Source of the DNA: an uncultured Elusimicrobia bacterium
Lineage (GTDB): Bacteria; Elusimicrobiota; Elusimicrobia; UBA1565; UBA9628
Reading direction: 5' to 3'
Length of the DNA stretch: 59,390 bases
NCBI GenBank assembly: GCA_964623465.1
Contig: CAZURZ010000002.1
Location: forward strand, 1 to 59,390
Within the stretch, counting starts at the first letter, position 1, and every line of letters begins with the position of its first letter. Both the position numbers and the translations under genes were made by a program. This document shows positions 15,712 to 59,390 of the stretch, piece after piece. The notes beneath the pieces were generated by a model. The model was not told the DNA's origin. It searched no databases and saw only the letters and a program-made list of their open reading frames with translations.

Positions 15712-18700
15712 TTACTTCAGATAGGACTCGAGGTTGCGCAGGCGGAACGCCGCGTCGCCCTGATCCTTCGGCCGCGAGAGGACGATGCGCATGCCGCCGT
15801 TCTTCTCCTGCCAGATCGAGGCCCCGCCGAGGCCGCGCTCGTCGCCGTCGTACTCGAGCCTGAGCGTCAACGGGGCGGTCTTGCCCGAGGCGCGGCGCGC
15901 CTCCCCCATGCGGCGCGCCATGTCGAAGAACGCGCCGTCGCCGTACGCCCCCAACAACGGCGCCCACTGCTCGTCGGCGACCGCGATCGTGAAGCCCTTC
16001 GGCCAGGCGGGGTCGAGCGTGAGCTCGGCCAGGCGGGCCCGGCCGAGCGCGGTCAGGCGGGCCGCCAGAACCCGGTCTCCCGCGGCGAAGTCCTCGATCG
16101 CCGCGCGCTTGACCGCGGCGACGCCGCTCGACATGCGGTCGCGGCGGCGCGCGTCGAGCTTGCGGAAGGACGAAGCGATCATCTCCACGCCGAAATCCCC
16201 CGCCTTGCGGCCGCGGTCGACCGTGAGGCGGTCGAGCTCCTCGGCGGCGAGCATCATCTGGATGGTCGCCATGTTCATCTCGCGGCGCAGGAGCTCGCCG
16301 GCCCAGGAGGCCATCTCGGAGACCGCGCGGGCGGCGGCCTCGCCGAACGCCGCGCCGAGCGCGGCGGAGAGCTCGCCGCCGAGGCGCTCGCTCAGGAACC
16401 GGCGCATCTGCTCGGCGCTCGCCCCTTCGGGAGGGAGCAGGTTCTCGAGATCGGCGCCGTACCGGGCGCGCAGCGCGTCCGCGGCCGAGGCGGGCAGGGC
16501 GTCGAACACCGTCGAGACGACGCGCGGCCGGTCGTAGACGCCGGACGCGACGAGGCGGTCGATGGCCGGGGCGAGGCGGCGGTCGAGCTCGTCCTGCAGG
16601 CGCTCCTGCCCCAGCGCGACGAGGCGCGCCGTGATCATCTCCGGCGTCACCGGACCGTCCGGCATGTCGAGCCGGTCGGCGGCCATGCGCAGCAGCCAGG
16701 GCTCGGCCTCGCCCGCGCGCACCGGCGCCAGCGGCGAGAGGCGGCTGTTGAACGCGCCGAAGGCCGCGAGGAGGACCGGAGCGTGGGTCTTGAAGGAGAT
16801 CGTCTTGTCGAGCACCGGGATGTCGACCGTCTGGGTCTCGTCGAGCGCCGTGAGCAGGGCGCGGCGCCCCGCCGAGATCGCCACCGCGTTCCAGGTCTCC
16901 TGGTCGCCGATGAGCCTCAACACCTCCACGGCGCGGCCGGCGTCGGCGTGCAGGTCGGCCAGAAGCTCCTGGCGCGTCGCGCCGTCGCGCGCGCGCTCGA
17001 GGAACCGGTCCATCGCCGGGCCGAGCGACTCCGAGATCATTCGGCGCAGGCGGCGGTCCGCCTCCGACGCGGCGGGCGCGACGCGCAGCATGACGTCGGC
17101 CAGCACGGCGCGCTGCTCGCCGGTCAGCGGGAGGGCGCTCATGCGGTCGATCAGGGCGCCGGCGGCCTCCGGCCCCAGGCGCCCGAGGGCCAGCGACAGC
17201 GCGTTCATGCCGGCGTCGATCTGCGCGGCGGCCGCGCCCGTGTCGATGAGCCGCACGAGGTCGGTCGCGCGCTCGGCGGCCTGGACGCCGTCGGAAATCG
17301 CGTCGGTGACGACGCGCGTCGCCCCGGGCAGATAAGGCCGCATGACCTGCCCCTTGGTCTCGTACTCCCCGCCGAAGAGATGGTCCACCGTCAGGTTCGC
17401 GCCGCGCTTGCCGTCGAGGTCGACCGTCAATCCCGCGATGATCGCGTCGGAGTTCAGGTCGGCGTTGCCGTACTGGATCTTGTCGCGCTCGTAGGCGAGA
17501 TAGGCGCGCGTCCGGTCGGACAGCTGGGCGTCGACCTGCAGGCGCGCCTTGTCGCGCTCATATTCGATTCCGGGTCCGCTCTCGCGGCTGACGGAGGCGC
17601 GCACAGCGATCGGCACCCGGCGCACGCTCGTCATCAAAGCGGCCTCGCCCTGCGTGACCGTCGTGTCCGCGTTGTAGCGCTGGCCGACCGAGACGCTGAA
17701 GCGCGCGTCGTCCACGCCCGGAACGCGCCCCCACAGAGCGGTCGTCCAATGCGGGGCGTTCTCCAGATTCACGCCGGCCTTCACCCCGCCCTCGCCCATC
17801 AGCTCCTGGTAGACGCGGTTGCCGACCGGCGAGATGTTCTGCATGACGCCGCCGAACACGCCGAGGAACAGCTCGTCGCCCGGAAGGCGGATGCGCAGGC
17901 CGATCGACTCGTCGAAGGCCTGGTTGGGCGCGAGGTGCATCATCTTGGTCAAGCTCGTCACGCTCCAGCCGACGTCCACCGGCCCGCCGAGGTGGTAGGC
18001 GCGCCCCATCTGCGCGAGCAGGCTCGCCACGACGATGCCCTGAGCGCGGTAGGCGTCGTCGTAGGACAGGCTCTGCCGGATCCTGGCGACGTCGTCCGCG
18101 GGCGCCCCGAGCGAGACGGCGAGGTCGGCCAGGCGGCCGACGCGCGGGTCGGGTCCGTCGTGGAAGAAGCGCGCCTTGAGGTCGACGTAGGCGATCTGCG
18201 CCTTGACGCGGTAGTCGACCCACGACTTCGGGTCGCTGTCGACCGCCTTCGTCACGTTGACGTAAGGGCTCGGCATGAGCAGGCTCGAGCGCCCGTCGAT
18301 CCCGAGCTGGCCCACCTCCAGGCTCAGCCCCGTCTTCGGATTGGTCACCGTGACCGAGCGCACCGTCTCGTTGCGCACGCGCGCGTCGAAGACGAGCTCG
18401 TCGCCGGCCCGGGCCCGCTCTCCGAGCGCGGCGGTCCCGTCGAAGACGCCGTCGAGCACCGCGCGGGCCCGGGTGAAGTCCTCGGCGCCCATGGGCTTTC
18501 CGTCGGCCCGCTGGATGTCCACGCCGACCGGCACCGCGAGCCCGCGGGCGCGCAGCGCCGCCTCGCGCTCCTCGACCAGGCGCTGCCCGTCCGGGGTCAG
18601 GAAGCCCTTGGCGTCGACGTACGCCTCCCAGCCCTGCGGCTTGATGAGACGGATCAGCTCGAGGCGGCGCAGGCGGGAGCGCTCGCCGGCCTCGAGGTCG

Positions 18701-18870
18701 TCGCGCAGGCGGGCCTTTTCCGCCGCCTCCATCGCCCGGTAGCGCTCCACGGGCACGCTCCAACGCTCGAGCAGCTCCGGCGTGATCTTGAACGCGGACG
18801 GCGCGGGAACGGCGGCGGGGACCGCGGCGACGGCCAGCGTGGCGGCGCAGACGAGAACGGCTGCGAGCAT
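15712..18870 (-). CDS. large (1052 aa) secreted protein, unknown function
   Basis: Signal peptide MLAAVLVCAATLAVAAVPA. The central region has beta-strand-like alternation and the C-terminal half is helical. TATAAT lies 9 nt upstream of the ATG. No family recognised. Confidence 0.65.
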   Translation of the reverse strand: MLAAVLVCAATLAVAAVPAAVPAPSAFKITPELLERWSVPVERYRAMEAAEKARLRDDLEAGERSRLRRLELIRLIKPQGWEAYVDAKGFLTPDGQRLVEEREAALRARGLAVPVGVDIQRADGKPMGAEDFTRARAVLDGVFDGTAALGERARAGDELVFDARVRNETVRSVTVTNPKTGLSLEVGQLGIDGRSSLLMPSPYVNVTKAVDSDPKSWVDYRVKAQIAYVDLKARFFHDGPDPRVGRLADLAVSLGAPADDVARIRQSLSYDDAYRAQGIVVASLLAQMGRAYHLGGPVDVGWSVTSLTKMMHLAPNQAFDESIGLRIRLPGDELFLGVFGGVMQNISPVGNRVYQELMGEGGVKAGVNLENAPHWTTALWGRVPGVDDARFSVSVGQRYNADTTVTQGEAALMTSVRRVPIAVRASVSRESGPGIEYERDKARLQVDAQLSDRTRAYLAYERDKIQYGNADLNSDAIIAGLTVDLDGKRGANLTVDHLFGGEYETKGQVMRPYLPGATRVVTDAISDGVQAAERATDLVRLIDTGAAAAQIDAGMNALSLALGRLGPEAAGALIDRMSALPLTGEQRAVLADVMLRVAPAASEADRRLRRMISESLGPAMDRFLERARDGATRQELLADLHADAGRAVEVLRLIGDQETWNAVAISAGRRALLTALDETQTVDIPVLDKTISFKTHAPVLLAAFGAFNSRLSPLAPVRAGEAEPWLLRMAADRLDMPDGPVTPEMITARLVALGQERLQDELDRRLAPAIDRLVASGVYDRPRVVSTVFDALPASAADALRARYGADLENLLPPEGASAEQMRRFLSERLGGELSAALGAAFGEAAARAVSEMASWAGELLRREMNMATIQMMLAAEELDRLTVDRGRKAGDFGVEMIASSFRKLDARRRDRMSSGVAAVKRAAIEDFAAGDRVLAARLTALGRARLAELTLDPAWPKGFTIAVADEQWAPLLGAYGDGAFFDMARRMGEARRASGKTAPLTLRLEYDGDERGLGGASIWQEKNGGMRIVLSRPKDQGDAAFRLRNLESYLK

Positions 18871-18938: not shown

Positions 18939-19559
18939 TTACTCGGCTTTGTCGGTGACGAGCGTCTCCAGGCTTTGCAGATCGCCGTTGATCGCGAAGT
19001 TCTTCGCGTAGTCGATCGTCACCGTGCTGGGCGCGGGATCGGCGGGCGCCTCCCCGAAGGGAACGACGACGGTCTTGCCCGGGGTGACGAGGACGGTCTT
19101 GCCTTGGGCGGTCACCGCGACGGTGTGCCCGAAGCCCGCGTATGTCGTGGCCTTGGTCTCCTTGTCGGCCTTGCCCCAGAACAAGGTGCCGCGCACGGCC
19201 GCCACCGCCGACTGGGTGCGCACGCGGAAGCTCTGGCGTTTCTCGAGCTTCTTCGACAGGCCGATCAAGAACTCGCCGAACTTGAACGAAAGCGTCGTCG
19301 CGCGGGGAGACCCGGTCAGCGTCATCACGCTCTCCTCGCGCAGCAGCACCGCGCCGCGGTCCTTGAGGACGAGGTGCGCGACCCCGCCCTTGCCGACCTT
19401 GATGGTGTCGCCATAGATCAGGCCCTCTCCGCCTTGGGCGGCCACGGCCTTGGCCGCTCCCTGGGCGAGGATGGACACCGGACCGGACATCTTGGCGAGG
19501 GTCGCGTCCTGGGCGGAGGCGGCCGTCGCGGCGAGCGTCAAAACGAGAGCGAGCTTCAT
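18939..19559 (-). CDS. FecR-domain secreted protein
   Basis: ATG at 19559 gives signal peptide MKLALVLTLAATAASA, followed by a FecR-type fold pattern (GD.I.....A.L....G....L...S...L...; VRT....AVRGT.F). Confidence 0.7.
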   Translation of the reverse strand: MKLALVLTLAATAASAQDATLAKMSGPVSILAQGAAKAVAAQGGEGLIYGDTIKVGKGGVAHLVLKDRGAVLLREESVMTLTGSPRATTLSFKFGEFLIGLSKKLEKRQSFRVRTQSAVAAVRGTLFWGKADKETKATTYAGFGHTVAVTAQGKTVLVTPGKTVVVPFGEAPADPAPSTVTIDYAKNFAINGDLQSLETLVTDKAE

Positions 19560-22409: not shown

Positions 22410-23117
22410 TTACTTCTTCCCGTCGCGGCGTGTCGAGGCTTCGTCCTTGGCGAGCTTGGCCAGCGCGGCTTTGGCGTCGTTCTCGACGGAGGAGCCCTTC
22501 GGAGCCAACGCGAGGGCGCGCTTCCACTCGGTCCGAGCCCTCTCCAAGTCGCCCCTCTGGAAGTGGATCATGCCGGTGAAGTACGCCTGCGTGGCAAGAT
22601 GCTCGTCCTTGGGCTCCTCGGCCGTCTTGAGCGCCTTGGGCGCGCCGTCTCCCGTCATCGGAGCCTCGCCGTAGAGCACGGCGATCCGCTCCAGCCCGGC
22701 CGCGGCGTCCTTCGCCGCGTCGGAACCGGCCGGCGCGAGCGCTTTGGCCTCGGCCCAGCGCGCGCGCGCCTTCTCGTAGTCGCCCTTCTGGAAGTAGATC
22801 ACGCCCTCCAGGTACTTCTGCTGGGCGTCGCGCTCGGCCGAGGGCGGCGCCTGGGTGACCGGCGGCGCGGGCTCGTCGGCCTTGTCCTCCGGCGGGACCG
22901 GGCGCGCCGGCCCGGCGTCGAGAGCCGAGAGGCCGAACTCGCAGAAGTCGTTCTTCGCGTCGAGCTCCAGGCAGGCCGTCCACTCCCGGCGGGCGTCCTC
23001 GCCGCGGCCGGCGCGGAAATGATCGTAGCCGGCCATGAAGTGGGCGTCGGCGGCGCGGTTCGGGGAGATCTGGGCGGAAGCGGCCGGAGCCAGGGCGAGG
23101 AGGACGGACAGGATCAT
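22410..23117 (-). CDS. TPR-repeat secreted protein
   Basis: Signal peptide MILSVLLALAPAASA, and repeated A..YF.G...F..GD...A...W..AL.L motifs. Confidence 0.75.
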   Translation of the reverse strand: MILSVLLALAPAASAQISPNRAADAHFMAGYDHFRAGRGEDARREWTACLELDAKNDFCEFGLSALDAGPARPVPPEDKADEPAPPVTQAPPSAERDAQQKYLEGVIYFQKGDYEKARARWAEAKALAPAGSDAAKDAAAGLERIAVLYGEAPMTGDGAPKALKTAEEPKDEHLATQAYFTGMIHFQRGDLERARTEWKRALALAPKGSSVENDAKAALAKLAKDEASTRRDGKK

Positions 23118-38539: not shown

Positions 38540-41500
38540 ATGAAGACCATGAGCGCCTCCCTTTCGCTGATCCTGATCCTCCAGCCCCTCGCGAACGCCC
38601 AGACGCTCGCCGGCCGCGCCGCGAACGCCCCGCTGGCGCCCTCGCTCGGCCTTCCCGCGACGCCCGCCCTCTCCCCCTCCTCCCTCGCCGCCCCGGCCCT
38701 CGCGCCCGCCGTCCTCGCGCCGTCGCTCGCCGCCCCTTCCGCCTCCCCCGTCTTGAATGCCATGATCCCCGCGGCGCCGGCCGCGAGGCCCGCCGCCGCC
38801 AAGGCCATGGAACCGATCAAGCCCGAAGCCCAGCCCGCGCGCGCGCTGCCCGTGCTGCGCGCCGCCGCTTCCGCGCCCGACCGCCCCGCCGACGCGCAGT
38901 TCGACGGGAGCGCCGCGCGCCGCCCCGCGGACGCCGTCTCCGCCGCCGAAGGCGCGGCCGCCCCCGGCCTGTCCTTGCCCGTGAAGACCTTCACCTTGGC
39001 CAACGGCCTCAAGGTCGTGGTCCACACCGACAAGACCGCGCCCGTCGTCGCCGTCTCCATCACCTACAACGTCGGCTCGATGCACGAGACGCCCGGCCTC
39101 TCCGGCTTCGCGCACCTCTTCGAGCACCTGATGGCCCAGGGCACGAAGAGCCTCAAGCCGCGCGAGATCTCGCACCTCATCGAGTCCAACGGCGGCGTGC
39201 GCAACGCGTACACGATGCGCTCCAACACCACCTACCACTCCGTCGTCCCGAAGAGCGCCCTGAAGACCGTGCTCTGGGCCGAGGCCGAGCGCATGTCCAA
39301 GCTCAACGTGGACGAACTCGCGCTCGCCGACGAGCAGCAGGTCGTGCTCGAGGAGATGCGCCTGCGCTACGTCAACGCCGCCTACGCGAAGGCCCGCGAC
39401 GCCGGCATGGCGGAGACCGCGTTCCGCAAGTGGGAGAACCGGCACACCACGATCGGCGAGGCCGCCGACGTGCGCGGCGCGCGCCTCGAGGACGTGCGCG
39501 AGTTCTACCGGAAGCACTACGCGCCCAACAACGCCGTGCTCTCCCTCGCGGGCGACGTGACCGAGGATGAGGCCCGCGCGCTCGCCGAGCGCTTCTTCGG
39601 CCCGCTCGAGTCCAAGCCCCTGCCGCAGGCTCCCGACCTCTCCGAGCCGCGCATGACCGGGGAGACGCGCCGCGTGATCGAAGACAAGTTCGCCAAGGTC
39701 CCCCTGCTCATGACGGGCTGGAACGCCCCGGAGCGCGGCACCAAGGACTACTGGGCGCTGACCTTGCTCGGCGAGATACTCGGCGCGGGCGAGGACAGCC
39801 CGCTGTACCGCGCGCTCGTCAAGGACGCCAAGATCGCTCTGTCGGCGAGCACGAACTTCCCCTGGTGGACCGGGCCGTTCAATCCCGGCGGCCCCGAGCT
39901 CTTCGGCGTCATGACGGCCCTCAAGGGCGCCACGGCCGACGAGGCCCTGCGCCTCACGGACGCCGTGCTCGCGCGTCTCGCCGAGGAGGGTCCGACCGAG
40001 GCCCAGCTCGCCGCGGCCAAGACGAGCGTCGAGCTCGCGTGGACGAAGGACCTCGAGCAGCTCATCGAGCGCGCCAAGACCGCCGGCTCCTACGCCGCGA
40101 TGGTCGGCGATCCGGAGAACCTCTCCCGGGATTTCGCGGACCTGATGTCCGTGACGGTCGCCGACGTCAAGGCCGCGCTGAAGGAGTGGATCGTCGGCAA
40201 GGGACGCGCCGTCGTCGAGGCGCGCCCGGCCCCGAGCCTCGTCCTGTCGGTCGATCCCGCCACGCCGCCCAAGCCGACGCGCGCGCCGCGTCCCGAGGGC
40301 GACCCGCGCCCCGAGATCGATCCCCAGCCCGCCGCGAAGGTCCCGGCCATCGAGCGTTTCACGCTCTCCAACGGCCTCAAGGTCGCCTTCGTGCGCGACT
40401 CCCGCCTGCCCCTGCTCGAGGCGCGGCTCTCATTCGCGGCCGGACGCGTGGCGGAGCGCCCGGGCGAGGACGGCCTGTCGGCCGCCGCCGCCGAGCTGCT
40501 CCTCCAGGGCGCCGCCGGCCGGGACGCCCGCGGCCTCGCCGCCGCCTTCGCGGGCCTGGGCTGGAAGCTCGACGTCATTCGCGGAGTCGAGTGGCTGGAC
40601 GTCTTCGCCTCCGGCCTGTCGCGCAACTCCGCGGCGTTCTTCCGGGAGCTCGCGAACGTGCTCTCCACCGCGACCTTCCCCGAGGACGAGGTCGCGCTCT
40701 GGAGGGAGAACAAGGTCGAGGAGCTCAAGATGCAGCGCGCGAAGCCGGACTTCATGGCCTCCGAGCGCATGAAGGCCGAGCTGTTCGGCGCCGAACACCC
40801 CTACGGAAGGCCCGCGCTGGAGGACGCGCAGATCGGCGCGATCTCTCGCGGCAAGATCGCCGACTTCTTCCGGCGCTCGTACGTGCCCGACGGCGCGACG
40901 CTCACGTTGACCGGCGACGCCGACCCGGCGGCCCTGCGCGCCCAGCTCGAGGCCGCGTTCGCCGGCTGGACCGGCGCGTCCGCCGCGCCGCGGATCCCGG
41001 ACCTGCCCGCGCAGGGACCGGCGCGCACCGCCCTCGTCGACCGCGCCGGCTCGAAGCAGGCCAACCTCACCGTCTCCCAGGCCGTCGATCTCAAGCCGAC
41101 GGATCCCGACTACCTCGCCTTCTCGGTGATGAACCAGATCCTCGGCGGCTCGGCGACCTCGCGCCTCTTCGTCAACCTGCGCGTGAAGAACTCCTACACC
41201 TACGGCGCGTACTCCCGCCCGCAGGCGCTCGAGAAGGGCCTGCTCTGGACGGCGACCGCCGAGGTCCGCAACGAGGTCGCGGCCGCCGCGCTCGCCGAGA
41301 TGCGCAAGGAGATCGCGGGCATGCGGGACGGCCTCGTCGACGAGCGGCAGCTCGAGGCGGTCAAGCGCTACCTCGCCGGCCTCTTCCTCCTGCGGCTGTC
41401 GTCCATCGACTACGCGGCCGACTCGCTCGCGGGCTACGAACGCAACAAGCAGTCCGCGGAGCGCGAGCTGGCCACCTACGTGGAGCGTCTGAACGCGCTG

Positions 41501-41608
41501 ACGCCGGCCGACATCCAGCGCGTCGCGCGCCGCTACCTCGACCCGGAGAAGATGGTGACGGTCGTGGTCGGCGACGAGAAGGCCCTGGCCCCGCAGCTGC
41601 GGCCCTAG
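38540..41608 (+). CDS. M16 (pitrilysin) family zinc peptidase, two tandem M16 modules, with long N-terminal leader
   Basis: Inverted zinc motif HLFEHLM (HxxEH) in the first module, and a second, inactive-type M16 pair downstream. The first ~145 aa are a hydrophobic helix plus a Pro/Ala/Ser/Leu-rich spacer ending in AQFDGS. Confidence 0.85.
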   Translation: MKTMSASLSLILILQPLANAQTLAGRAANAPLAPSLGLPATPALSPSSLAAPALAPAVLAPSLAAPSASPVLNAMIPAAPAARPAAAKAMEPIKPEAQPARALPVLRAAASAPDRPADAQFDGSAARRPADAVSAAEGAAAPGLSLPVKTFTLANGLKVVVHTDKTAPVVAVSITYNVGSMHETPGLSGFAHLFEHLMAQGTKSLKPREISHLIESNGGVRNAYTMRSNTTYHSVVPKSALKTVLWAEAERMSKLNVDELALADEQQVVLEEMRLRYVNAAYAKARDAGMAETAFRKWENRHTTIGEAADVRGARLEDVREFYRKHYAPNNAVLSLAGDVTEDEARALAERFFGPLESKPLPQAPDLSEPRMTGETRRVIEDKFAKVPLLMTGWNAPERGTKDYWALTLLGEILGAGEDSPLYRALVKDAKIALSASTNFPWWTGPFNPGGPELFGVMTALKGATADEALRLTDAVLARLAEEGPTEAQLAAAKTSVELAWTKDLEQLIERAKTAGSYAAMVGDPENLSRDFADLMSVTVADVKAALKEWIVGKGRAVVEARPAPSLVLSVDPATPPKPTRAPRPEGDPRPEIDPQPAAKVPAIERFTLSNGLKVAFVRDSRLPLLEARLSFAAGRVAERPGEDGLSAAAAELLLQGAAGRDARGLAAAFAGLGWKLDVIRGVEWLDVFASGLSRNSAAFFRELANVLSTATFPEDEVALWRENKVEELKMQRAKPDFMASERMKAELFGAEHPYGRPALEDAQIGAISRGKIADFFRRSYVPDGATLTLTGDADPAALRAQLEAAFAGWTGASAAPRIPDLPAQGPARTALVDRAGSKQANLTVSQAVDLKPTDPDYLAFSVMNQILGGSATSRLFVNLRVKNSYTYGAYSRPQALEKGLLWTATAEVRNEVAAAALAEMRKEIAGMRDGLVDERQLEAVKRYLAGLFLLRLSSIDYAADSLAGYERNKQSAERELATYVERLNALTPADIQRVARRYLDPEKMVTVVVGDEKALAPQLRP

Positions 41609-41717: not shown

Positions 41718-42662
41718 ATGAAGAGACTCATGATCACGGCCGCCGTCCTGGCGGCCGCCCTGCGGCTGACGGCGTCGGCGCAGGTGGACGGGCAGGTCAT
41801 CTACGGCGCGGACGACCGCATCGACCTGTATCAGACGGACAACGCGAAGCTGCGCTCCATGGCCGACTCGACCGTCGCCCTGGTCAACGCGTCCTCGGTG
41901 AAGGCCGAAGGCGCCGTGGCCAAGCTCGACGTCGATCCGTACGGTCCCGGCATGGGCCTGTGCAAGGACGAGCCCTTCTACGAGCAGGTCACCGCCGCCT
42001 TCTGCTCGGGCTCGCTCATCGCCCCCGACCTGATCATGACGGCCGGCCACTGCATCACCTCCGAGGCCTCCTGCCAGAACACCAAGTTCGTGTTCGGCTT
42101 CTCCGTCAAGGAGAAGGGCAAGATGCCGACGTCGGTGCCCGCGACCGAGGTCTACGGCTGCAAGAAGCTGCTCGGCCGCGACCAGGTCAACGACGGCGCC
42201 GACTGGGCGCTGATCAAGCTCGACCGGCCCGTCTCCGGCCACGCGCCGCTGAAGCTGTCCAAGGGCGCGATCGCCAACAAGACGCCCATCGTCGTCATCG
42301 GCCATCCGGCCGGCCTGCCGACGAAGATCGCGGGCGGCGCCGAGGTGCGCGACAACTCGAAGAACGGCTACTTCATCGCCAACCTCGACACCTACGGCGG
42401 CAATTCCGGCTCGGCGGTCTTCAACGCCCGCACCGGCCTGGTCGAGGGCATCCTCGTCCGCGGCGAGCAGGACTACGTCTACCGCGGCTCCTGCCGCGTG
42501 TCGAACGTGTGCACGAACGAGGGCTGCCGCGGCGAGGACGTCACCAAGATCGACGTCGTCAACGAGAAGCTGCCCGCCCTCCAGCATCAGGACCGCGTGG
42601 CCGGACTCGGCGCCACGTTCGCGTCCCTGCTGAGCTCGGTCTCGGCCGAGGCGCAGCCCTGA
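41718..42662 (+). CDS. trypsin-like (S1 family, V8/Glu-endopeptidase-like) secreted serine protease
   Basis: GAGGAGG Shine-Dalgarno sequence and a signal peptide. The catalytic triad contexts are TAGHC, DWALIKL and GGNSGSAVF. Confidence 0.8.
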   Translation: MKRLMITAAVLAAALRLTASAQVDGQVIYGADDRIDLYQTDNAKLRSMADSTVALVNASSVKAEGAVAKLDVDPYGPGMGLCKDEPFYEQVTAAFCSGSLIAPDLIMTAGHCITSEASCQNTKFVFGFSVKEKGKMPTSVPATEVYGCKKLLGRDQVNDGADWALIKLDRPVSGHAPLKLSKGAIANKTPIVVIGHPAGLPTKIAGGAEVRDNSKNGYFIANLDTYGGNSGSAVFNARTGLVEGILVRGEQDYVYRGSCRVSNVCTNEGCRGEDVTKIDVVNEKLPALQHQDRVAGLGATFASLLSSVSAEAQP

Positions 42663-46348: not shown

Positions 46349-48085
46349 GTGAAGCTTCCCAAGGAGTGGTCGGTGTACCTGGTGCGCTGCGCGGACGCGA
46401 GCCTCTACACCGGCATCGCGAAGGACGTCGCCGCGCGCGTCGCCGCCCACAACGACGGACGCGGCGCGGCCTACACGCGCTCGCGCCTGCCGGTGCGCCT
46501 CGTCTATCAGAAGAAGGGCTTCACCCGCTCCACCGCTTCGATCGAGGAAGCCCGCATCAAATCGCTCGAACGCCCCGCCAAGCTGGCCCTCGTCGCCCGC
46601 TCCCTGCGGCGCGCCGCCGGCGCGCTGGCCCTCCTCTGGGCCGCGGCCTCCCCGGCCGCCGCCCTGCCCGTGTTCGTGCCCGAGAACGCGGTCGTGCTGT
46701 CCTCGGCGGCCCCGCAGGCCTTCACCGGGGAGTCGACGTACGCGCCCCTGCGCATGTACTACCTCCCCGCGATCTCCAGCGGGGTGCCGCACACGAGCTC
46801 GGGCCCGGCGATCCTGTCCGCGACCTCGGTCAACGGCTTCGCCTGGACCAAGGAGTCCGGCGTGCGCGTCGACACGAACACGGTCCCGTCCGTGTCCGCC
46901 AGCTCGATCACCGGCTGCTCCCTCCAGCCGCTCACCGCCGGCGGCTTCCGCATGCTCTACTCGATCGTGTCGACCACCGGCGCCTACCGCATCCACTCGG
47001 CGACCTCGGCCGACGGCCTGGCCTGGGCGAACGAAAGCGCGACGCACGTCGACGCGGGGACCATCGCCTTCGTCGCGCACCCCAAGGTGGTCGTGCTGAA
47101 CTCGGGGGACTGGCGCATGTACTACATCGCCGGCTCGACGACCACCACGGCCGACCGCACGATCCGCACCGCCCGCTCCACCGACCAGGGCGCCTCGTGG
47201 GGCTCCTTCGCCGTCGCCTTGTCCACTCTCGCCTACGAGGTCGGCGCCTCCAAGCTCGCCGACAACAAGATCCGCCTCTACTACACGCAGGCCCTGGCCG
47301 CCGGCTCGAGCGCGACCGTGATCGCCAGCGCCCTGTCGAGCGACGCGCTGGGGACGTCCTTCACCCAGGAAACGGGCTTCCGCGTCTCGACCGGCGTGAC
47401 GACGGGGGCCCTCGCCTTCCCCGTGCCCGCGCGCTCCACGGATTCCTTCCGCTGGCGCCTGTACTACGCCGCGTACGAATCGTTCAACTCGACCGGCGAC
47501 GCGCGCTCGGCCCTGACCGGCTCGCCGGCGCCCGTCTCGATCTCGCCCAACACCGTGTACGCGAGCGCCGGCTCGATCCCGCTCACGATCAAGGGCGAGG
47601 TCTTCTCGACCGCTCCCGGCGTCTCGATCACGCGGGGCGCGACGACCATCGCCGGGACGAGCGTCAACCGCAGCGACGACCAGACGATCACGGCGAACTT
47701 CGCCACGCAGGGCCAGGCTGTCGGAACCTGGGACGTCACCGTCACGAACGCGGACGGCGTCGCGACGACCGCGTCCAACCTGCTGACGATCGATTTCGCC
47801 CCCGGCGTCGTCGTGCTGACCAACAACCTCCTGCGCCCGCGTCTGGGCGGGAGCACGACGGTCGACATCACGACCTTCAACCCCGGCCCGGTGACCGCGC
47901 GCGTGTACGACCTCGAGGGCCGGCCGGTCAACACGCTCTTCGAGGGCTACCAGCCCGCAGGTGCGTTCACCGTGACCTGGAACGGGCGCTCCGCCTCGGG
48001 CGCGGCCGCCCCGAGCGGCGTGTACTTCGTCCAGGTGACCGGCCCCAAGATCAACCAGAAGAGCAAGATCGTCCTGATCCGATGA
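46349..48085 (+). CDS. fusion protein: N-terminal GIY-YIG (YhbQ/UPF0213-like) domain + signal-peptide-like helix + BNR-type repeats + Ig-like domains + FlgD-Ig/T9SS-type C-terminal domain
   Basis: GTG at 46349 (or TTG at 46340). The GIY-YIG part reads WSVYLVRCADASLYTGIAKDVAARVAAHNDGRGAAYTR...EEARIKSL. It continues into RSLRRAAGALALLWAAASPAAALP with no stop and no canonical start codon between the two parts. SxDxGxxW-like units (STDQGASW, SADGLAW) follow. The C-terminus is VYDLEGRPV..L....AG...V.WNG....G...PSGVYFV. Confidence 0.65.
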   Translation: MKLPKEWSVYLVRCADASLYTGIAKDVAARVAAHNDGRGAAYTRSRLPVRLVYQKKGFTRSTASIEEARIKSLERPAKLALVARSLRRAAGALALLWAAASPAAALPVFVPENAVVLSSAAPQAFTGESTYAPLRMYYLPAISSGVPHTSSGPAILSATSVNGFAWTKESGVRVDTNTVPSVSASSITGCSLQPLTAGGFRMLYSIVSTTGAYRIHSATSADGLAWANESATHVDAGTIAFVAHPKVVVLNSGDWRMYYIAGSTTTTADRTIRTARSTDQGASWGSFAVALSTLAYEVGASKLADNKIRLYYTQALAAGSSATVIASALSSDALGTSFTQETGFRVSTGVTTGALAFPVPARSTDSFRWRLYYAAYESFNSTGDARSALTGSPAPVSISPNTVYASAGSIPLTIKGEVFSTAPGVSITRGATTIAGTSVNRSDDQTITANFATQGQAVGTWDVTVTNADGVATTASNLLTIDFAPGVVVLTNNLLRPRLGGSTTVDITTFNPGPVTARVYDLEGRPVNTLFEGYQPAGAFTVTWNGRSASGAAAPSGVYFVQVTGPKINQKSKIVLIR

Positions 48086-49008
48086 CGCGCGCCCTGCTCG
48101 CCGCCGCCGTCCTCTCCCTGCTCGCCGCGCCCGCGTCGGCCGCCGGGGCGGCGACTTTGCGCCGCGCGCTGTCGACTCGCGCGGCGGGCATGGCGAACGC
48201 CTACTCGGCGGTGCCGGGAGGGCTGTCCTCGCTGAGCACCAACCCCGCCGGCCTCGCCGCCGCACGCAAGCCGGAGCTCGACAGCGCGTTCGCCAGCGGG
48301 GTGCTCGACGACACCTTCGGCTTCATCGCCGGAGGACGGCCGCTTCCGCTGGGCGTGCTCGCGGCGGGCCTGTCGTACTACGACGCGGGCAAGGTCGATC
48401 TGCATTTCACCGGCGGAACCACCGAGACCCGGACCGCGCAGCGCGACTTCGTGGGCCACCTGGGCTGGGGCGTCGCCTTGCCCGGCGGCCTCTCCGCCGG
48501 CGCGACCGGCAAGTTTTACCGCTTCGAACTGGCGCAGGAAGCCAAGGCCTCGGGAGCCGCGGCCGACTTCGGCGCGCAGTGGCGCACGCCGGTCAAAGGC
48601 CTCGCCCTGGGCGCCGCCGTCCAGAATCTCGGCCCCGGCCTCCGCTACGAGAGCGAGCGCGAACCCCTGCCGACCGCCGCGCGCGGCGGCGCCTCCTGGT
48701 CTTGGGCCAGCCGCGAGCCCGCCAAGGACGCGGAGTCGACGATCGCCGGAACGCGCTTCCTCGCCGTCGCCGAGGCGCTCAAGGAGCGCGACGTGAAGAC
48801 CGCGGGCGCGCTCGGGGCCGAGATCGCCATGGATTTCTCGGAACGAGCCGCGATCGCGCTGCGCATGGGCTGGACGCTGAACTCGGACGCTTCGCGCCTG
48901 AGCGTCGGCGTGGGCATCCGCGAAGGCCGCTGGACGCTCGATTACGCCCTCGGCGAGAAGCGCACGCTCGGCCAGACCCACCAGGTCGGCTTCGGCGTTC
49001 GATTCTAA
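48082..49008 (+). CDS. PorV/PorQ-family outer-membrane protein
   Basis: The ATG overlaps the previous stop (ATGA at 48082-48085). A signal peptide is followed by AAGMANAYSAVPGGLSSLSTNPAGLA. The sequence has a beta-barrel pattern and ends in VGFGVRF. Confidence 0.65.
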   Translation: MTRALLAAAVLSLLAAPASAAGAATLRRALSTRAAGMANAYSAVPGGLSSLSTNPAGLAAARKPELDSAFASGVLDDTFGFIAGGRPLPLGVLAAGLSYYDAGKVDLHFTGGTTETRTAQRDFVGHLGWGVALPGGLSAGATGKFYRFELAQEAKASGAAADFGAQWRTPVKGLALGAAVQNLGPGLRYESEREPLPTAARGGASWSWASREPAKDAESTIAGTRFLAVAEALKERDVKTAGALGAEIAMDFSERAAIALRMGWTLNSDASRLSVGVGIREGRWTLDYALGEKRTLGQTHQVGFGVRF

Positions 49009-53938: not shown

Positions 53939-56767
53939 ATGAAGACCATGAACCGCCGGCCCAAGACCACCCTCGCCCGCGTCCTGCTCGCCGCCTTCCT
54001 CGTCACGCTTCCGGGAAGCCGCGAGGCCTTCGCGCAGGTGGCCGGCAGAAGCGGTCCCGCGGTTTCCGCAACCGGTCCGGTCGGCATCACCGGCGTCATC
54101 GGCGGCGTCTCCGCCGCCCCGGGCCTGTCCGCGCCGCTCTCTCCCGCGGCCCTCTCGCTCTCTCCGCTCGGCGCGCCCAGCCTCGCGGCCCCGGTGCCGA
54201 ACGCCGCGGCGGCGGCCGCGATTCCCGCCGCGATCCCGGCCGCGCTGAAGTCGTCCGCGCGCCCCGCCGCGATCCTGCCCGACGCTCGGGCCGGAGCGAA
54301 AGCCGCCCTGACCGGCGCGGCCGGCCGCGTCGCCCGCATCGGAGACCGCACGTCCGCCGACGACGCCCGGGGCCTGGCCGCCTCCGCCTTCGACGGCATC
54401 AGCCGCGCCGGCGCGGCCGGCGACGTTCCCTCGGCCCTCACCCCCGCCCGCGGCGCCGCCGCCGGCGGCGACGGCTCGAACGGCGGCGGTCCGCTCGTGC
54501 CGAGCCGGCCGGCGATCGCCCCGGTCATCGCGCTCACGAAGGTCTTCTTCCCCGGCGTCAACGACCGGCGCTTCGGCTTCACGGGAGAGAAGACGCTCGC
54601 GCTCGTGAAGCTCGCGCTGCGCAACGGCGGCTGGATGATCGCCACCACGGCCGGCTCGAACGAGAAGGGCCAGAGCGACGCGGCCGTTCTGACCAGGATC
54701 TCCCACCTCGACGAGTCCAATCCCGCGCAGATGTCGGTGATGATGTCGGTCGTCGACACGGTTCAGATCATCGGCTACGGGGCCAAGGACGAGGTGCCGG
54801 TCGCCAAGGTCGTCTACCCCAAGCAGGCCAGCGACGCCAAGCGGCTCGAGGATCTCGGCTCCCTCGCCCAGCACACGCTCGAGGAGCTCGCCCGTCTCGA
54901 CCCCGCGCTCGACAAAGACGTCGTGAAGCACGCGCTGATGGAGAAGAGCTCCGAGCGCCTGGCCAACCTGCTCGCGCAGGAACTCCCGTTCCCCGACGCC
55001 GTCAAGCAGCGTCTGCTCGCCGAACCGTCGACCGAGGCCCTGATGCAGGCCGTGATCCTCGAGATGACGGCCCACTTCAAGGGCGCCTCCGACGCGGCCA
55101 AGCCCAAGGCCAAGGGCGACGGCGAGAAGGGCGGCGCCGGCAACGGCGCGCCCGTCGCCGAGGCGCTCAAGACCGTCGAGGCGCTCAAGACGAAGATGAA
55201 GATCATCGGCATGCCCGACGCCATCCAGGAGACCGTCCTCTCCGAGTACCGCAAGTACTCCGAGATGAATCCCAAGGACTCCGAGGCGCAGAAGCTGCGC
55301 CAGTACATGGAGTGGCTGCTCGAGATGCCGTGGAGCCGCCGCACCGAGGACAACCTCGACATCCCGGCGGCCCGCAAGATCCTCGACGCCGACCACTTCG
55401 GCCTGGAGCGCGTGAAGGAGCGCGTGCTCGAATTCCTCGCCCTGCGCAAGAAGACCGGCTCGAAGAAGGGCGCGATCATCGCCTTCACCGGGCCTCCCGG
55501 CGTCGGCAAGACCTCGATCGCCTCGGCGATCGCGCAGGCGCTGGGCCGCAAGTTCGTGCGCCTCTCGCTCGGCGGCGTGCACGACGAGTCCGTCCTGCGC
55601 GGCCACGGCCGCACCTACGTCGGCTCGATGCCCGGCGAAATCATGCGCCAGATGAAGAACGCCGGCACGGTCAACCCCGTCATGCTCATGGACGAGGCCG
55701 ACAAGATCGGCCGCAACGGCAACCACGGCGACCCGACGGCCGCCCTGCTCGAGATCCTGGATCCGGCGCAGAACAACACCTACCGCGACCGCTACCTGGA
55801 CGTTCCTTACGATCTGTCCGAGGTGCTGTTCGTCGTGACCTCCAACGAGCTCATGAACATCCCCGAGCCGCTGCGCGACCGCATGGAGATCATCGAGTTC
55901 GACGGCTACACGACGCTCGAGAAGATCGAGATCGCCAACCGCCACATCATCCCCCAGAAGCTCAAGGTCACCGGCCTGAAGCCCGAGGAGGCCTCGCTCA
56001 CGAAGGCCGCGATCATGCGCGTCATCGAGGGCTACACGATGGAGGCGGGCGTGCGCAAGCTGCGCGAGCAGATCGAGTCGCTGCTGCGCAAGATCTCGGC
56101 CTGGACCGAGACCCGCGGCCTGCAGGCGCCCGGCAAGGTCGACGCGAAGGATGTGGAAAAGTACCTCGGCGTCGAGCGCTTCTCCCCCCGCGAGACGGCC
56201 CAGAACGGGATCGGCGTGGCCACGGGCCTCGCGGTCAACACCTACGGCGGCAGCACGCTGAACGTCGAGGTTTCCAAAGAGCCCGGCACCGGCCAGCTGA
56301 AGCTGCGCAAGCAGTTCGGCGACGACATCGAGGACTCGGCCAAGAACGCCTTGAAGTACGTGAAGCAGAACAAGGAGAAGTTCGGCCTGAAGGACTTCGA
56401 CTTCACGAAGTACGACATCGACATCAACATCACCCCGGCGGGCAAGGTCGACGGCCCCTCCGCCGGCGGCCTGATGGTGACCGCCATCATCTCCGCGCTG
56501 ACCGGCCGCTCGGTCACGCCCGGCCTGGCGATGACGGGCGAGATCACGATGCGCGGCGACGTGCTGCCCATCGGCGGCCTCAAGCAGAAGGTCATGGCCG
56601 CCCACCGCATGGGCTACAAGATGGTGATCTTCCCCCACGCGAACCTCAAGGACGTCGAGGACATCCCCCAGGAGGTCCGCGACGGCATCAAGCTCAAGGC
56701 CGTGAAGACGTACGACGAGATCTACCCCGACGCGGTCGTCCCCGCCGAGGACGCTCCGAAGAGCTGA
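53939..56767 (+). CDS. lon: Lon-family ATP-dependent protease with atypical ~190-aa N-terminal leader
   Basis: LON N-domain ([12 protein letters not shown]...), Walker [10 protein letters not shown], Walker [10 protein letters not shown], and proteolytic DGPSAGG / KQKVMAAHR. The leader reads [31 protein letters not shown], then a Pro/Ala/Ser-rich spacer, then SAFDGI. Confidence 0.9.
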
Positions 56768-56777
56768 GCGCAAACGC

Positions 56778-59390
<2,613 letters not shown>

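Follow-up and report, generated by a model that had tools for sequence, protein, structure and literature searches.

Can an ATP-dependent protease begin with a secretory leader, and what would such a leader do for it? AAA+ proteases are textbook enzymes of the cytoplasm or of the matrix and require ATP. The question is raised by a 59,390-bp stretch of DNA from an uncultured Elusimicrobia bacterium (contig CAZURZ010000002.1; here called the window, with a G+C content of about 70%), in which two Lon proteases (Lon1 and Lon2), an M16 peptidase and a giant hydrophobic protein all start, on translation, with a Sec-type signal peptide, a spacer of 60-125 residues rich in Pro, Ala, Ser and Leu, and an FDG motif. 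An earlier reading of the letters alone (the sequence-only reading) had proposed that these otherwise unrelated proteins carry the same leader; what it had spotted is a real, conserved and undescribed N-terminal module. The leader is translated, conserved between genomes, predicted to be disordered and shuffled among genes, and its carriers avoid cysteine. Its mechanism is most likely, at moderate confidence, Sec-dependent export followed by use of the spacer as a disordered tether that presents a short docking motif.

Architecture, translation and conservation of the leaders

The four signal peptides have the anatomy expected of Sec/signal peptidase I substrates: a basic n-region, an h-region of 10-14 residues, a Pro/Gly break and a predicted small-x-small end followed by Gln (AFA↓QV in Lon1, LFA↓QV in Lon2, ANA↓QT in M16 and VLA↓QV in the giant protein). 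Lon1 has five Lys/Arg in its first 14 residues and the c-region PGSREAFA↓Q, and Lon2 combines the n-region IKLARK with the c-region PGPLFA↓Q. The M16 peptide divides into MKTMSAS, LSLILIL and QPLANA↓Q, and that of the giant protein into NLNRSLFGR, FVASLLSFILI and QTAPGLGVYEVLA↓Q. The spacer had been described as rich in Pro, Ala, Ser and Leu, and over residues 30-150 the summed fraction of Pro, Ala and Ser is indeed 0.47-0.60 in the four proteins, against at most 0.40 in every other gene of the window. Sub-motifs common to pairs of leaders are also present as reported, IPAA at residues 94-103 of Lon1, 72-77 of Lon2 and 75-79 of M16, and RALPVL(R/E)AAA at residues 101-110 of M16 and within residues 86-102 of Lon2. 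The FDG motif, placed 120-170 residues in by the sequence-only reading, occupies residues 151-153 (Lon1), 125-127 (Lon2), 121-123 (M16) and 169-171 (giant protein). It closes a conserved block located 20-60 residues ahead of the folded domains, and in the Lon leaders it is followed by a Gly/Ser/Asp-rich sequence. An origin of the spacers from DNA tandem repeats was considered and rejected, their 12-15 nucleotide periodicity being weak and not above that of the rest of the window.

Structure prediction with AlphaFold2, using an 18-sequence alignment of the giant protein, gave a predicted local distance difference test score (pLDDT) of 20-30 over residues 36-223, with a sole short helix at residues 160-169 that ends at F169. 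Hydrophobic helices follow from residue 228 on, and no confident contact of the leader with the downstream part was predicted. So low a score agrees with disorder without proving it. In this model the leader looks like a disordered region with one short linear motif, and F(D/E)G (the form of the box when the relatives described below are included), at the end of a predicted short helix within a disordered region, looks more like a binding motif than a cleavage site. The residue after the box varies widely (S, E, D, Q, A, I, W, G, F or N), therefore ruling out self-cleavage of the G↓S type, and the earlier suggestion that FDG is a cleavage site is not favoured.

Close relatives of the window genes all come from metagenome-assembled genomes (MAGs) of Elusimicrobiota/Elusimicrobia, the nearest being a 3.8-Mb assembly (CP096137.1) that is syntenic with the window and is represented here by loci L001 and L003; the MAGs of this clade stem from activated sludge or groundwater. 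This MAG, labelled complete, has frameshifts within Lon1 and Lon2 (L001 10001-16302) and within the M16 leader (L003 6001-9070); therefore the three genes are annotated there as fragments or hypothetical proteins. The frameshifts are probably assembly errors rather than signs of pseudogenes.

Translation of the leaders had been argued from G/C-biased third codon positions, and this holds: of the three frames, the annotated one has the highest third-position G+C content, 0.88-0.95 in the leaders. Lon1 and its L001 orthologue show 9 synonymous and 0 amino-acid changes over their first 37 codons, and the 100 nucleotides upstream are just 35% identical. In each region of a 7-sequence alignment of M16, changes fall most often on third positions, a pattern that is clearest in the signal peptide and the M16 domain. 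As to initiation downstream of the leader, which the sequence-only reading had named as a test, only one codon ahead of the LON N-domain, a GTG, could serve as an internal start; L001 has GTC at this place, and the candidate was rejected because it is not conserved. By these comparisons the leaders are translated from the annotated ATG.

The M16 gene is represented by eight orthologous loci from species-representative genomes, and the leader is kept wherever the gene start is included (the L003 assembly has a frameshift and L008 is truncated on the 5' side). FDG is invariant in the seven aligned orthologues and the islands KA(M/I)(E/D)P(I/V)K, ALPxL, P(D/E)xP, FDG and A(K/R)xPA are invariant or nearly so; identity to the orthologues is 41% in the spacer and 92% in the M16 domain. 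A distant M16 protein (L017) is without KAMEPIK and keeps RALPVLL...PSQPE...FDGQAAKKPA. M16 relatives outside the clade are ordinary signal-peptide proteins, with only a signal peptide and a linker of 20-30 residues.

The giant protein has 44 relatives, all in Elusimicrobia, at 33-70% identity. Those with complete N-termini show a signal peptide of the form ..FLSFVLIQTAPGxxVYxALAQV and a variable spacer with PLSFKPxxLPAAAKSV, followed near residue 170 by the consensus EPSALLTTLSRLFDGS; deep branches read FGKLFDGWR, GRLFDGFRR, NRVFDASR, GRFFEGWR, LNLAFDGAK or RLVFDGGVV. In the alignment of 18 orthologues (34-71% identical), R10, P25, G26 and Y30 are invariant in the signal peptide, only L74 and F169 are invariant in the leader past it, and P90, P108, D170, G171 and L196 are at least 90% conserved. 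Similarity of composition alone had been named as the outcome that would undo the proposal, and the box proves positionally conserved in the 7 M16 and 18 giant orthologues.

F(D/E)G is likewise kept in the Lon1, Lon2, Clp1 and Clp2 proteins of L001, L002, L011 and L012, and the Lon1 orthologue P0001 reads SKGEPVTAKAVLGAAAL...AAFDGS. The h- and c-regions of the Lon1 type, with their (E/D)AFAQ end, are identical across Lon1 and Clp1 of four genomes (the Clp1 proteins P0002 and P0010 included). This constraint (53939-54034; L001 10001-10111; P0002; P0010) is far above the need of a generic signal peptide, and synonymous sites have diverged in the same stretch.

Homology between leaders and the proteins that carry them

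Lon1 is a LonA protease. In Pfam it has the LON N-domain (LON_substr_bdg) from residue 195, AAA+ and Lon_C; it scores 642 bits against a cut-off of 608 for NCBIfam TIGR00763 (endopeptidase La) and 521 bits to B. subtilis LonA 3m6a, and the Walker A and B motifs, pore loop, sensor, Arg finger and Ser-Lys dyad are all present (residues 518, 555, 585, 634, 645, 838 and 879). In Lon2 the Lon-type AAA+ module comes after about 650 residues without a family match. The M16 protein has Peptidase_M16 and M16_C domains in Pfam, the first M16 domain starting at residue 159, and an HxxEH zinc site. The giant protein (1,403 residues, about 20 hydrophobic segments) has no match in Pfam, NCBIfam or the PDB; its hydrophilic loops are uniformly Lys/Arg-rich, and no side of the membrane was assigned from their charges, which do not alternate between inside and outside. 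It also has repeated amphipathic stretches resembling FRFWxRFGLIFD (11046-15257, plus strand), and one orthologue is labelled 'phage-related protein' in one source.

Related genomes carry the leader on further proteins. Locus L002, in synteny with the window's end, has a Lon1 orthologue (leader tail ...ERFDGN) followed by two small genes, then Clp1 and then Clp2; two other metagenome loci (L011 and L012) are arranged in the same way. Clp1 (P0010; 1,058 residues) combines a Lon1-type signal peptide, AKGEPVAAKAVLQGAAL...AAFEG, PSALTPRR, one copy of the Lon2 N-domain and a ClpA/ClpB-like double AAA+ part. Clp2 of L002 (1,353 residues) has a signal peptide of the Lon2 type (APGPAFAQVAR), AAAKADKPSPRAALDGAAAQAA...RAFEG, an insert, a two-repeat N-domain and then Clp. 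Both belong to class I of Clp/Hsp100, with two AAA+ modules, ClpB_D2-small in Pfam and both Walker sets kept, and both have the leader and the new N-domain in place of Clp_N; neither is a ClpA or ClpB equivalog in NCBIfam (ClpB 684 bits against 1232, ClpA 622 against 993). Both carry RRPMGFV, which reads like the h-G-F loop of ClpA. A 424-residue membrane protein with a weak LOR domain (LOR protein), encoded immediately upstream of the most distant giant orthologue, also bears the leader. As the leader occurs on two Clp/Hsp100 ATPases and on the LOR protein in these relatives, it has passed as a module between genes that are unrelated.

The N-domain of Lon2 has in turn been swapped between Lon and Clp engines, being fused to Lon in the window and to Clp/Hsp100 in L002, L011 and L012, with one repeat in Clp1 and two in Clp2. 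It spans about 490 residues (57210-58685, plus strand; L002 7480-8970; P0010 residues 186-470) and consists of two winged-helix-like repeats and a helical bundle. No PDB sequence matches it. AlphaFold2 modelled it with a pLDDT of 61 and Foldseek returned nothing better than E=0.3 from the PDB; a resemblance to the GntR/FadR-like winged helix is only a hint from this model. The insert of Clp2, between the FEG box and the N-domain, is about 90 residues long with hydrophobic segments of about 21 and 16 residues (L002 6709-10770; L011 1482-5450; L012 1364-5317), and whether it makes one membrane pass or a hairpin would decide the side of the ATPase. The two small genes between Lon1 and Clp1 (L002 2539-2946 and 2982-3416) are paralogous, encode about 140 residues each with a receiver-domain-like look and no family match, and occur in Clp-bearing genomes only.

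A profile of the leader core (alignment A4) was searched against 1,095 six-frame open reading frames (ORFs) of the window and L001, whose Ala/Pro/Arg-rich spurious frames served as background. It matched leaders only, among them the L001 Lon2 leader, absent from training, at 43 bits; the next ORF scored below 10 bits, and the HMMER bias terms are large (20-50 bits). An exhaustive search of 1.84 billion representative proteins with the same profile gave two matches, P0001 and P0010, both from this clade; the sensitivity of this search is limited, the window M16 leader scoring 25 bits, and the rarity of divergent leaders is unproven. Profiles of the Lon1/Clp1-type leader find the Lon2/Clp2 type at 30 and 19 bits, and the reverse search gives 27 and 25 bits. 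Pfam, NCBIfam and PDB profiles gave no match on the leader other than chance PDB matches to Ala/Pro-rich sigma-factor tails (E about 0.7-0.9), in keeping with the earlier remark that this is not a described sorting signal. PADLOC returned generic AAA/Lon matches only, and a single-sequence search with the M16 leader found ordinary M16 domains with short linkers and no leader homologues.

Composition-corrected BLASTP between pairs of leaders gave E=5e-40 for Lon1 and Clp1, 4e-8 for Lon2 and the L001 Lon1 (over the conserved block), 4e-6 for M16 and Clp1, 2e-3 for Lon2 and M16, and 1e-3 for the giant protein and Clp2. The leader of the LOR protein, from the signal peptide to ..GAPSAISFSGLRRMFDGG, is 44% identical over 190 residues to that of the adjacent giant protein (P0054; E=1e-10 to 1e-18), and the remaining pairs with giant leaders are not significant. 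These comparisons robustly suggest two homology groups, one of Lon1, Lon2, Clp1, Clp2 and M16 and the other of the giant and LOR proteins. The link between them is only architectural, consisting of the arrangement and the F(D/E)G box, and a common origin is unproven. The proposal of one leader on four proteins therefore stands for the architecture of all four and for homology within Lon, Clp and M16, and homology of the giant leader to the other three is not statistically established. The spacer type is used more widely than the box, because a secreted ParB-like nuclease of relatives (PF08857; L016 4265-5317, L019 4876-5907) has a signal peptide, a PSL-type spacer and 0 Cys and is without F(D/E)G.

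Export with a docking motif and its rivals

The helix ending in AQ(V/T), the first element of the leader as originally described, is present in all four proteins, but it is a generic site. Among the proteins of 11 loci, small-x-small-Q occurs at 20 of 44 signal-peptide-like non-lipoprotein N-termini and at 3 of 87 controls, an enrichment and not a majority, obtained with a heuristic classifier. The A↓Q site is also found without a spacer, on the trypsin-like protease (41718-42662; ..LTASA↓QVDG), the FecR-like protein (18939-19559, minus strand) and a TPR protein (22410-23117, minus strand), and because of such proteins AQ(V/T) appears to be the ordinary signal peptidase I site of the organism and not a part of the leader module. 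Gln at +1 was also seen on secreted proteins of L002, L005, L009, L013, L014 and L016. The pattern resembles the Q-rule, in which Gln occupies +1 at most signal peptidase I sites and which has been described as specific to Bacteroidetes (Bochtler et al. 2018, PMC5837995; pattern also in PMC10653852). Basic n-region, short h-region, small-x-small and Gln at +1 recur here on about 45% of signal-peptide-like proteins and on all four leaders; the differences are that the host is an elusimicrobial one and that the rule covers the first 20-35 residues and neither the F(D/E)G block nor the spacer. No glutaminyl cyclase turned up in the window, where no search was aimed at one.

Other export routes left no recognizable mark on the leaders. 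A Tat signal, which would have S/T-R-R-x-F-L-K immediately ahead of the h-region, was rejected, since RR occurs only in the Lon1/Clp1 type, 6-7 residues before the h-region, and not in Lon2, M16, the giant or the LOR protein. No Cys stands at the end of any leader signal peptide, as an L-x-x-C lipobox would demand. The type IX sorting domain (TIGR04183/Por_Secre_tail) was not found on Lon1 or M16 with NCBIfam, the giant protein has no family in NCBIfam or Pfam, and a Pfam scan of the full proteins gave no TPS domain (Haemagg_act) or ESPR.

A second line of evidence is provided by cysteine. The four window proteins contain 0 Cys in about 4,240 residues, where about 37 are expected from the window average of 0.88%, and Cys is equally absent from Clp1, Clp2, the LOR protein, the Lon1 of L002 and every M16 orthologue that is intact. 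With one exception, the 44 giant orthologues confine Cys to positions 7-24, within the signal peptide (often as xCRF), and the sole Cys of the L017 M16 protein also lies in its signal peptide. Secreted proteins as a whole are not Cys-poor (signal-peptide proteins 1.0%, others 0.94%), and general Cys-poverty was rejected as a marker of export. A LonA without Cys exists elsewhere, as in the Meiothermus LonA alignment. Cys avoidance thus marks the leader cargo specifically and starts where the signal peptide ends, and this is the strongest indirect sign that the first 20-35 residues are cut off or otherwise kept apart from the remainder of the protein. The cysteine-free cargo appears to form a set that is handled in a common way, unlike ordinary secreted proteins. 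Possible reasons are that wrong disulfides would be prevented in cytoplasm-type folds within an oxidising compartment, or that the proteins would stay unfolded for a second translocation step.

The mechanism favoured here, somewhat more probable than not, has three parts. An ordinary cleavable Sec/signal peptidase I signal peptide would direct export and be cut ahead of a +1 Gln. The disordered and fast-evolving spacer rich in Pro, Ala, Ser and Leu (60-125 residues) would then act as a flexible tether, at the end of which a hydrophobic helix of the K-x-x-E-P / A-L-P-V-L type, a variable gap and F-(D/E)-G would form a putative docking or recognition element. Its partner would be located outside the cytoplasm and may be a receptor, an export chaperone or a processing enzyme. 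The module would have been copied among Lon1, Lon2, two Clp/Hsp100 ATPases, the M16 peptidase, the giant hydrophobic protein and the LOR-domain membrane protein.

Several observations weigh against this mechanism or against a single origin of the module. It is established that the diderm periplasm holds no ATP, a premise on which the biology of the envelope rests, and exported Lon1 and Clp proteins with intact ATPase motifs would have no obvious energy source outside the cytoplasm. This topological paradox, raised by the sequence-only reading for Lon, is real and is made stronger by the two leader-bearing Clp/Hsp100 ATPases. Basic residues precede the first hydrophobic segment past the leader in the giant protein (KKSK/RSR), the LOR protein (WWKK) and Clp2 (RARR), and by the positive-inside rule these, with the Lys/Arg-rich loops of the giant protein, would put the leader's end on the cytoplasmic side. 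This placement of charges conflicts with the anatomy of the signal peptides and is the main reason why export is favoured with no more than moderate confidence. AAA+ cargo with the leader is known from just 4-5 of the sampled genomes. Finally, a profile of the AAA+ leaders did not detect the M16 and giant leaders, and a profile of 34 giant leaders run against the six-frame ORFs did not detect those of Lon and M16; because of this lack of cross-detection, the idea of one homologous leader on all four proteins was dropped.

A more far-reaching but doubtful reading is that the clade sends complete ATP-dependent Lon and Clp/Hsp100 machines through Sec, with M16 and the giant protein, to work in a place that holds ATP, be it an energised periplasm or another cell's cytoplasm. 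Bacterial AAA+ proteolysis outside the cytoplasm of the producer would then have its first case, and the leader would be a new sorting signal; literature searches on exported Lon or AAA+ proteins returned nothing relevant. A signal peptide on two Lon and two Clp/Hsp100 proteins would imply either a new form of membrane tethering or AAA+ machines that work outside the cytoplasm. On either account the signal peptide, disordered spacer, helix-F(D/E)G element and absence of Cys provide a sequence handle for a set of cargo proteins in a poorly known phylum.

Known systems match the leader in part. Disordered envelope linkers rich in Pro, Ala and Ser occur in TonB/TolA and LpoB, and O-glycosylated Ala/Ser/Pro-rich regions follow Neisseria signal peptides; as here, a low-complexity, predicted-disordered stretch lies directly past the export signal, evolves fast and varies in length. 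We know of no such linker with a conserved helix-F(D/E)G box across unrelated cargo, or on AAA+ proteases. The translocation regions of colicins (TolB/TonB boxes) and the signal and chaperone-binding regions of type III effectors are disordered and have no Sec signal peptide. By analogy, they too would offer one short conserved box in a disordered N-terminus that is exchangeable between catalytic cargoes; the difference is that no Tol/Ton-box consensus, chaperone gene or injectisome is seen here. FtsH and the LonB of archaea and Bacillus likewise join a hydrophobic segment and a linker to an ATP-dependent protease, but their ATPase is cytoplasmic, the signal-peptide anatomy here predicts the opposite, and Lon1 is LonA, not LonB. 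Organellar Lon, Clp/Hsp78 and M16 processing peptidase carry presequences, and the ClpB-like HSP101 of the Plasmodium PTEX carries a signal peptide. The likeness lies in a trio of Lon, Clp/Hsp100 and M16 with N-terminal targeting extensions into a compartment that contains ATP; these are eukaryotic systems with unrelated targeting sequences, and we know of no ATP-containing extracytoplasmic compartment in Elusimicrobiota.

The main rival to export and docking, though an unlikely one, is an uncleaved N-terminal anchor whose Pro/Ala-rich leash would hold Lon1, Lon2 and Clp on the cytoplasmic face of the inner membrane, within reach of ATP as in FtsH or LonB, with FDG docking onto a partner in the membrane, for example the giant protein. 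The ATP paradox would be gone, the ATPase motifs being intact throughout, the basic residues and Lys/Arg-rich loops cited above fit a cytoplasmic side, and h- and c-regions that are invariant in Lon1 and Clp1 of several genomes are unusual for a disposable signal peptide. The anatomy of the signal peptides is harder to reconcile with it: basic n-regions, h-regions of 10-14 residues, Pro/Gly and small-x-small predict insertion with N in and C out followed by cleavage, not an N-out anchor. The leader is also found on an M16 peptidase whose relatives outside the clade are ordinary signal-peptide proteins, its +1 Gln matches the site of plainly secreted proteins, and the giant protein tolerates Cys in the first 25 residues and nowhere after, which fits removal of this segment or its stay in a different compartment. 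A delivery domain, through which the cargo would be exported unfolded, across the outer membrane, into another cell (prey, host or competitor) that would supply Lon and Clp with ATP while the giant protein inserts in the target membrane, is improbable. Total Cys avoidance that is specific to the leader cargo and not a trait of ordinary secreted proteins would suit it, such avoidance being typical of proteins that cross a second membrane unfolded, as would the loops of the giant protein, without charge alternation as for insertion from one side, the neighbouring genes for a secreted trypsin-like protease, a phospholipase D-like protein and a VWA protein, and the Gly/Ser/Asp-rich sequence after FDG in the Lon leaders. 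Yet no cargo gene has a gene for immunity, for lysis or for a secretion or injection apparatus next to it, a 1,400-residue protein with about 20 hydrophobic segments would be hard to pass through the periplasm, and the putative likeness to colicin and effector leaders is an analogy.

Slightly less probable again is a removable prodomain, which would keep the proteases inactive or unassembled until clipped near FDG, for example by M16 or the trypsin-like protease. Most of the cargo is proteolytic (Lon, Clp and M16), M16 enzymes include peptidases that remove organellar presequences, the M16 and trypsin-like genes form a syntenic pair, and the conserved block lies shortly before the folded domains. 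The giant and LOR membrane proteins bear the leader without being proteases, however, the residue after FDG is not conserved and, in the predicted structure of the giant protein, the leader does not dock onto what lies downstream; a prodomain is moreover compatible with export and docking and does not exclude it. That the leaders have no specific function, being generic low-complexity linkers that arise easily in DNA of 70% G+C, with a coincidental tripeptide, is very improbable. The fast evolution of the spacer, a weak periodicity found in many places of the window, the ParB-like nuclease with such a spacer and no FDG, the large HMMER bias terms and the failure of giant-leader profiles to find other leaders would all agree with it. 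Against this, FDG and its flanks are invariant in orthologues and the residues next to them are not; BLASTP with composition correction gives significant matches from one cargo family to another; the spurious Ala/Pro-rich ORFs of the same DNA, thousands in number, stay below 10 bits; and complete Cys avoidance is common to the cargo. The profile, BLASTP and orthologue alignments already largely refute it.

Coordinates and genomic neighbourhood

The coordinates of the leader parts and of their cargo in the window are collected in Table 1.

Table 1. Segments of the four leader-bearing proteins in the window (residue numbers in brackets).
Feature	Position	Strand	Basis
Lon1 signal peptide (1-32, then QV)	53939-54034	+	Translation; orthologue in L001
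Lon1 P/A/S/L-rich spacer (33-113; includes 10-residue sub-motif at 54218-54247)	54035-54277	+	Fast-diverging and gapped against L001
Lon1 conserved block ending in FDG (114-153; FDG at 54389-54397)	54278-54397	+	Leader-core alignment A4
Lon1 Gly/Ser/Ala linker after FDG, with PSALTPAR at 54428-54451, up to LON N-domain	54398-54520	+	Translation
Lon1 cargo, complete LonA (N-domain, AAA+, S16 protease), 0 Cys	54521-56767	+	Pfam, NCBIfam
Lon2 signal peptide (1-25, then QV)	56778-56852	+	Same N-terminus in L001
Lon2 P/A/S/L-rich spacer (26-85; includes AIPAAL)	56853-57032	+	Composition
Lon2 conserved block ending in SSFDG (86-127; FDG at 57150-57158)	57033-57158	+	Alignment, BLASTP
Lon2 cargo, helical N-domain (145-636) and Lon AAA+ module running off the contig end, 0 Cys	57210-59390	+	
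M16 signal peptide (1-20, MKTMSASLSLILILQPLANA, then QT)	38540-38599	+	LQP.AQAQ conserved, 7 orthologues
M16 P/A/S/L-rich spacer (21-86), weak 12-15 nucleotide tandem periodicity	38600-38797	+	
M16 conserved block AKAMEPIK...RALPVLRAAA...PDRP...QFDG (87-123; FDG at 38900-38908)	38798-38908	+	7-orthologue alignment
M16 cargo, short linker and four-domain M16 peptidase, HxxEH site (HLFEH), 0 Cys	38909-41608	+	
Giant protein signal peptide (1-34, ...SFILIQTAPGLGVYEVLA, then QV)	11046-11147	+	18-orthologue alignment
Giant protein disordered spacer (35-158; includes PLSFRSPLLPAAAKAV at 11367-11414)	11148-11519	+	AlphaFold2
Giant protein short helix ending in FDG (159-171, AALLGALGRVFDG)	11520-11558	+	Conservation, predicted helix
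Giant protein linker after FDG (PSALEPAR at 11622-11645, KKSK) and hydrophobic body, 0 Cys, no Pfam family	11559-15257	+	

The cargo genes do not form a dedicated operon, their neighbourhoods being housekeeping in nature and syntenic between genomes, and no partner gene or secretion apparatus is evident in these neighbourhoods. The upstream neighbour of the giant gene is always a type III glutamine synthetase gene, and the downstream one is usually of the YdjM family. The gene of the trypsin-like protease comes directly after that of M16, a pair that is syntenic in L005, L009 and L017, and the Lon and Clp genes are flanked by an LpxL-like acyltransferase gene on one side and by hydrolase/MOSC genes on the other. 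Besides the secreted trypsin-like protease, the products of neighbouring genes include a phospholipase D-like protein and a VWA protein.

A fifth protein, of 1052 residues (15712-18870, minus strand), had been noted for a GVFDGT at a similar depth. The motif is there, at about residue 143, but the protein is not a member of the set, since the motif lies in a charged, uniformly conserved region that is not of low complexity. It has a hydrophobic N-terminus, no family and 0 Cys past the N-terminal segment, and its gene is in an operon with that of the FecR-like protein (18939-19559, minus strand). In L016, an ABC ATPase gene adjoins the 1063-residue orthologue of this protein on the same strand.

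A PorV/PorQ-family outer-membrane protein is encoded at 48082-49008 on the plus strand (NCBIfam, 106 bits against a cut-off of 90), and the product of the gene upstream (46349-48085, plus strand) has at its C-terminus a sorting domain of type IX secretion, type A (29.3 bits, cut-off 23). Together these matches suggest elements of type IX secretion in this Elusimicrobiota clade. With the sites that resemble the Q-rule, they suggest that envelope traits typical of Bacteroidetes may reach further than that group. The 578-residue ORF at 46349-48085 begins with a GIY-YIG nuclease domain and may represent two genes fused in the call, which are separate in L001.

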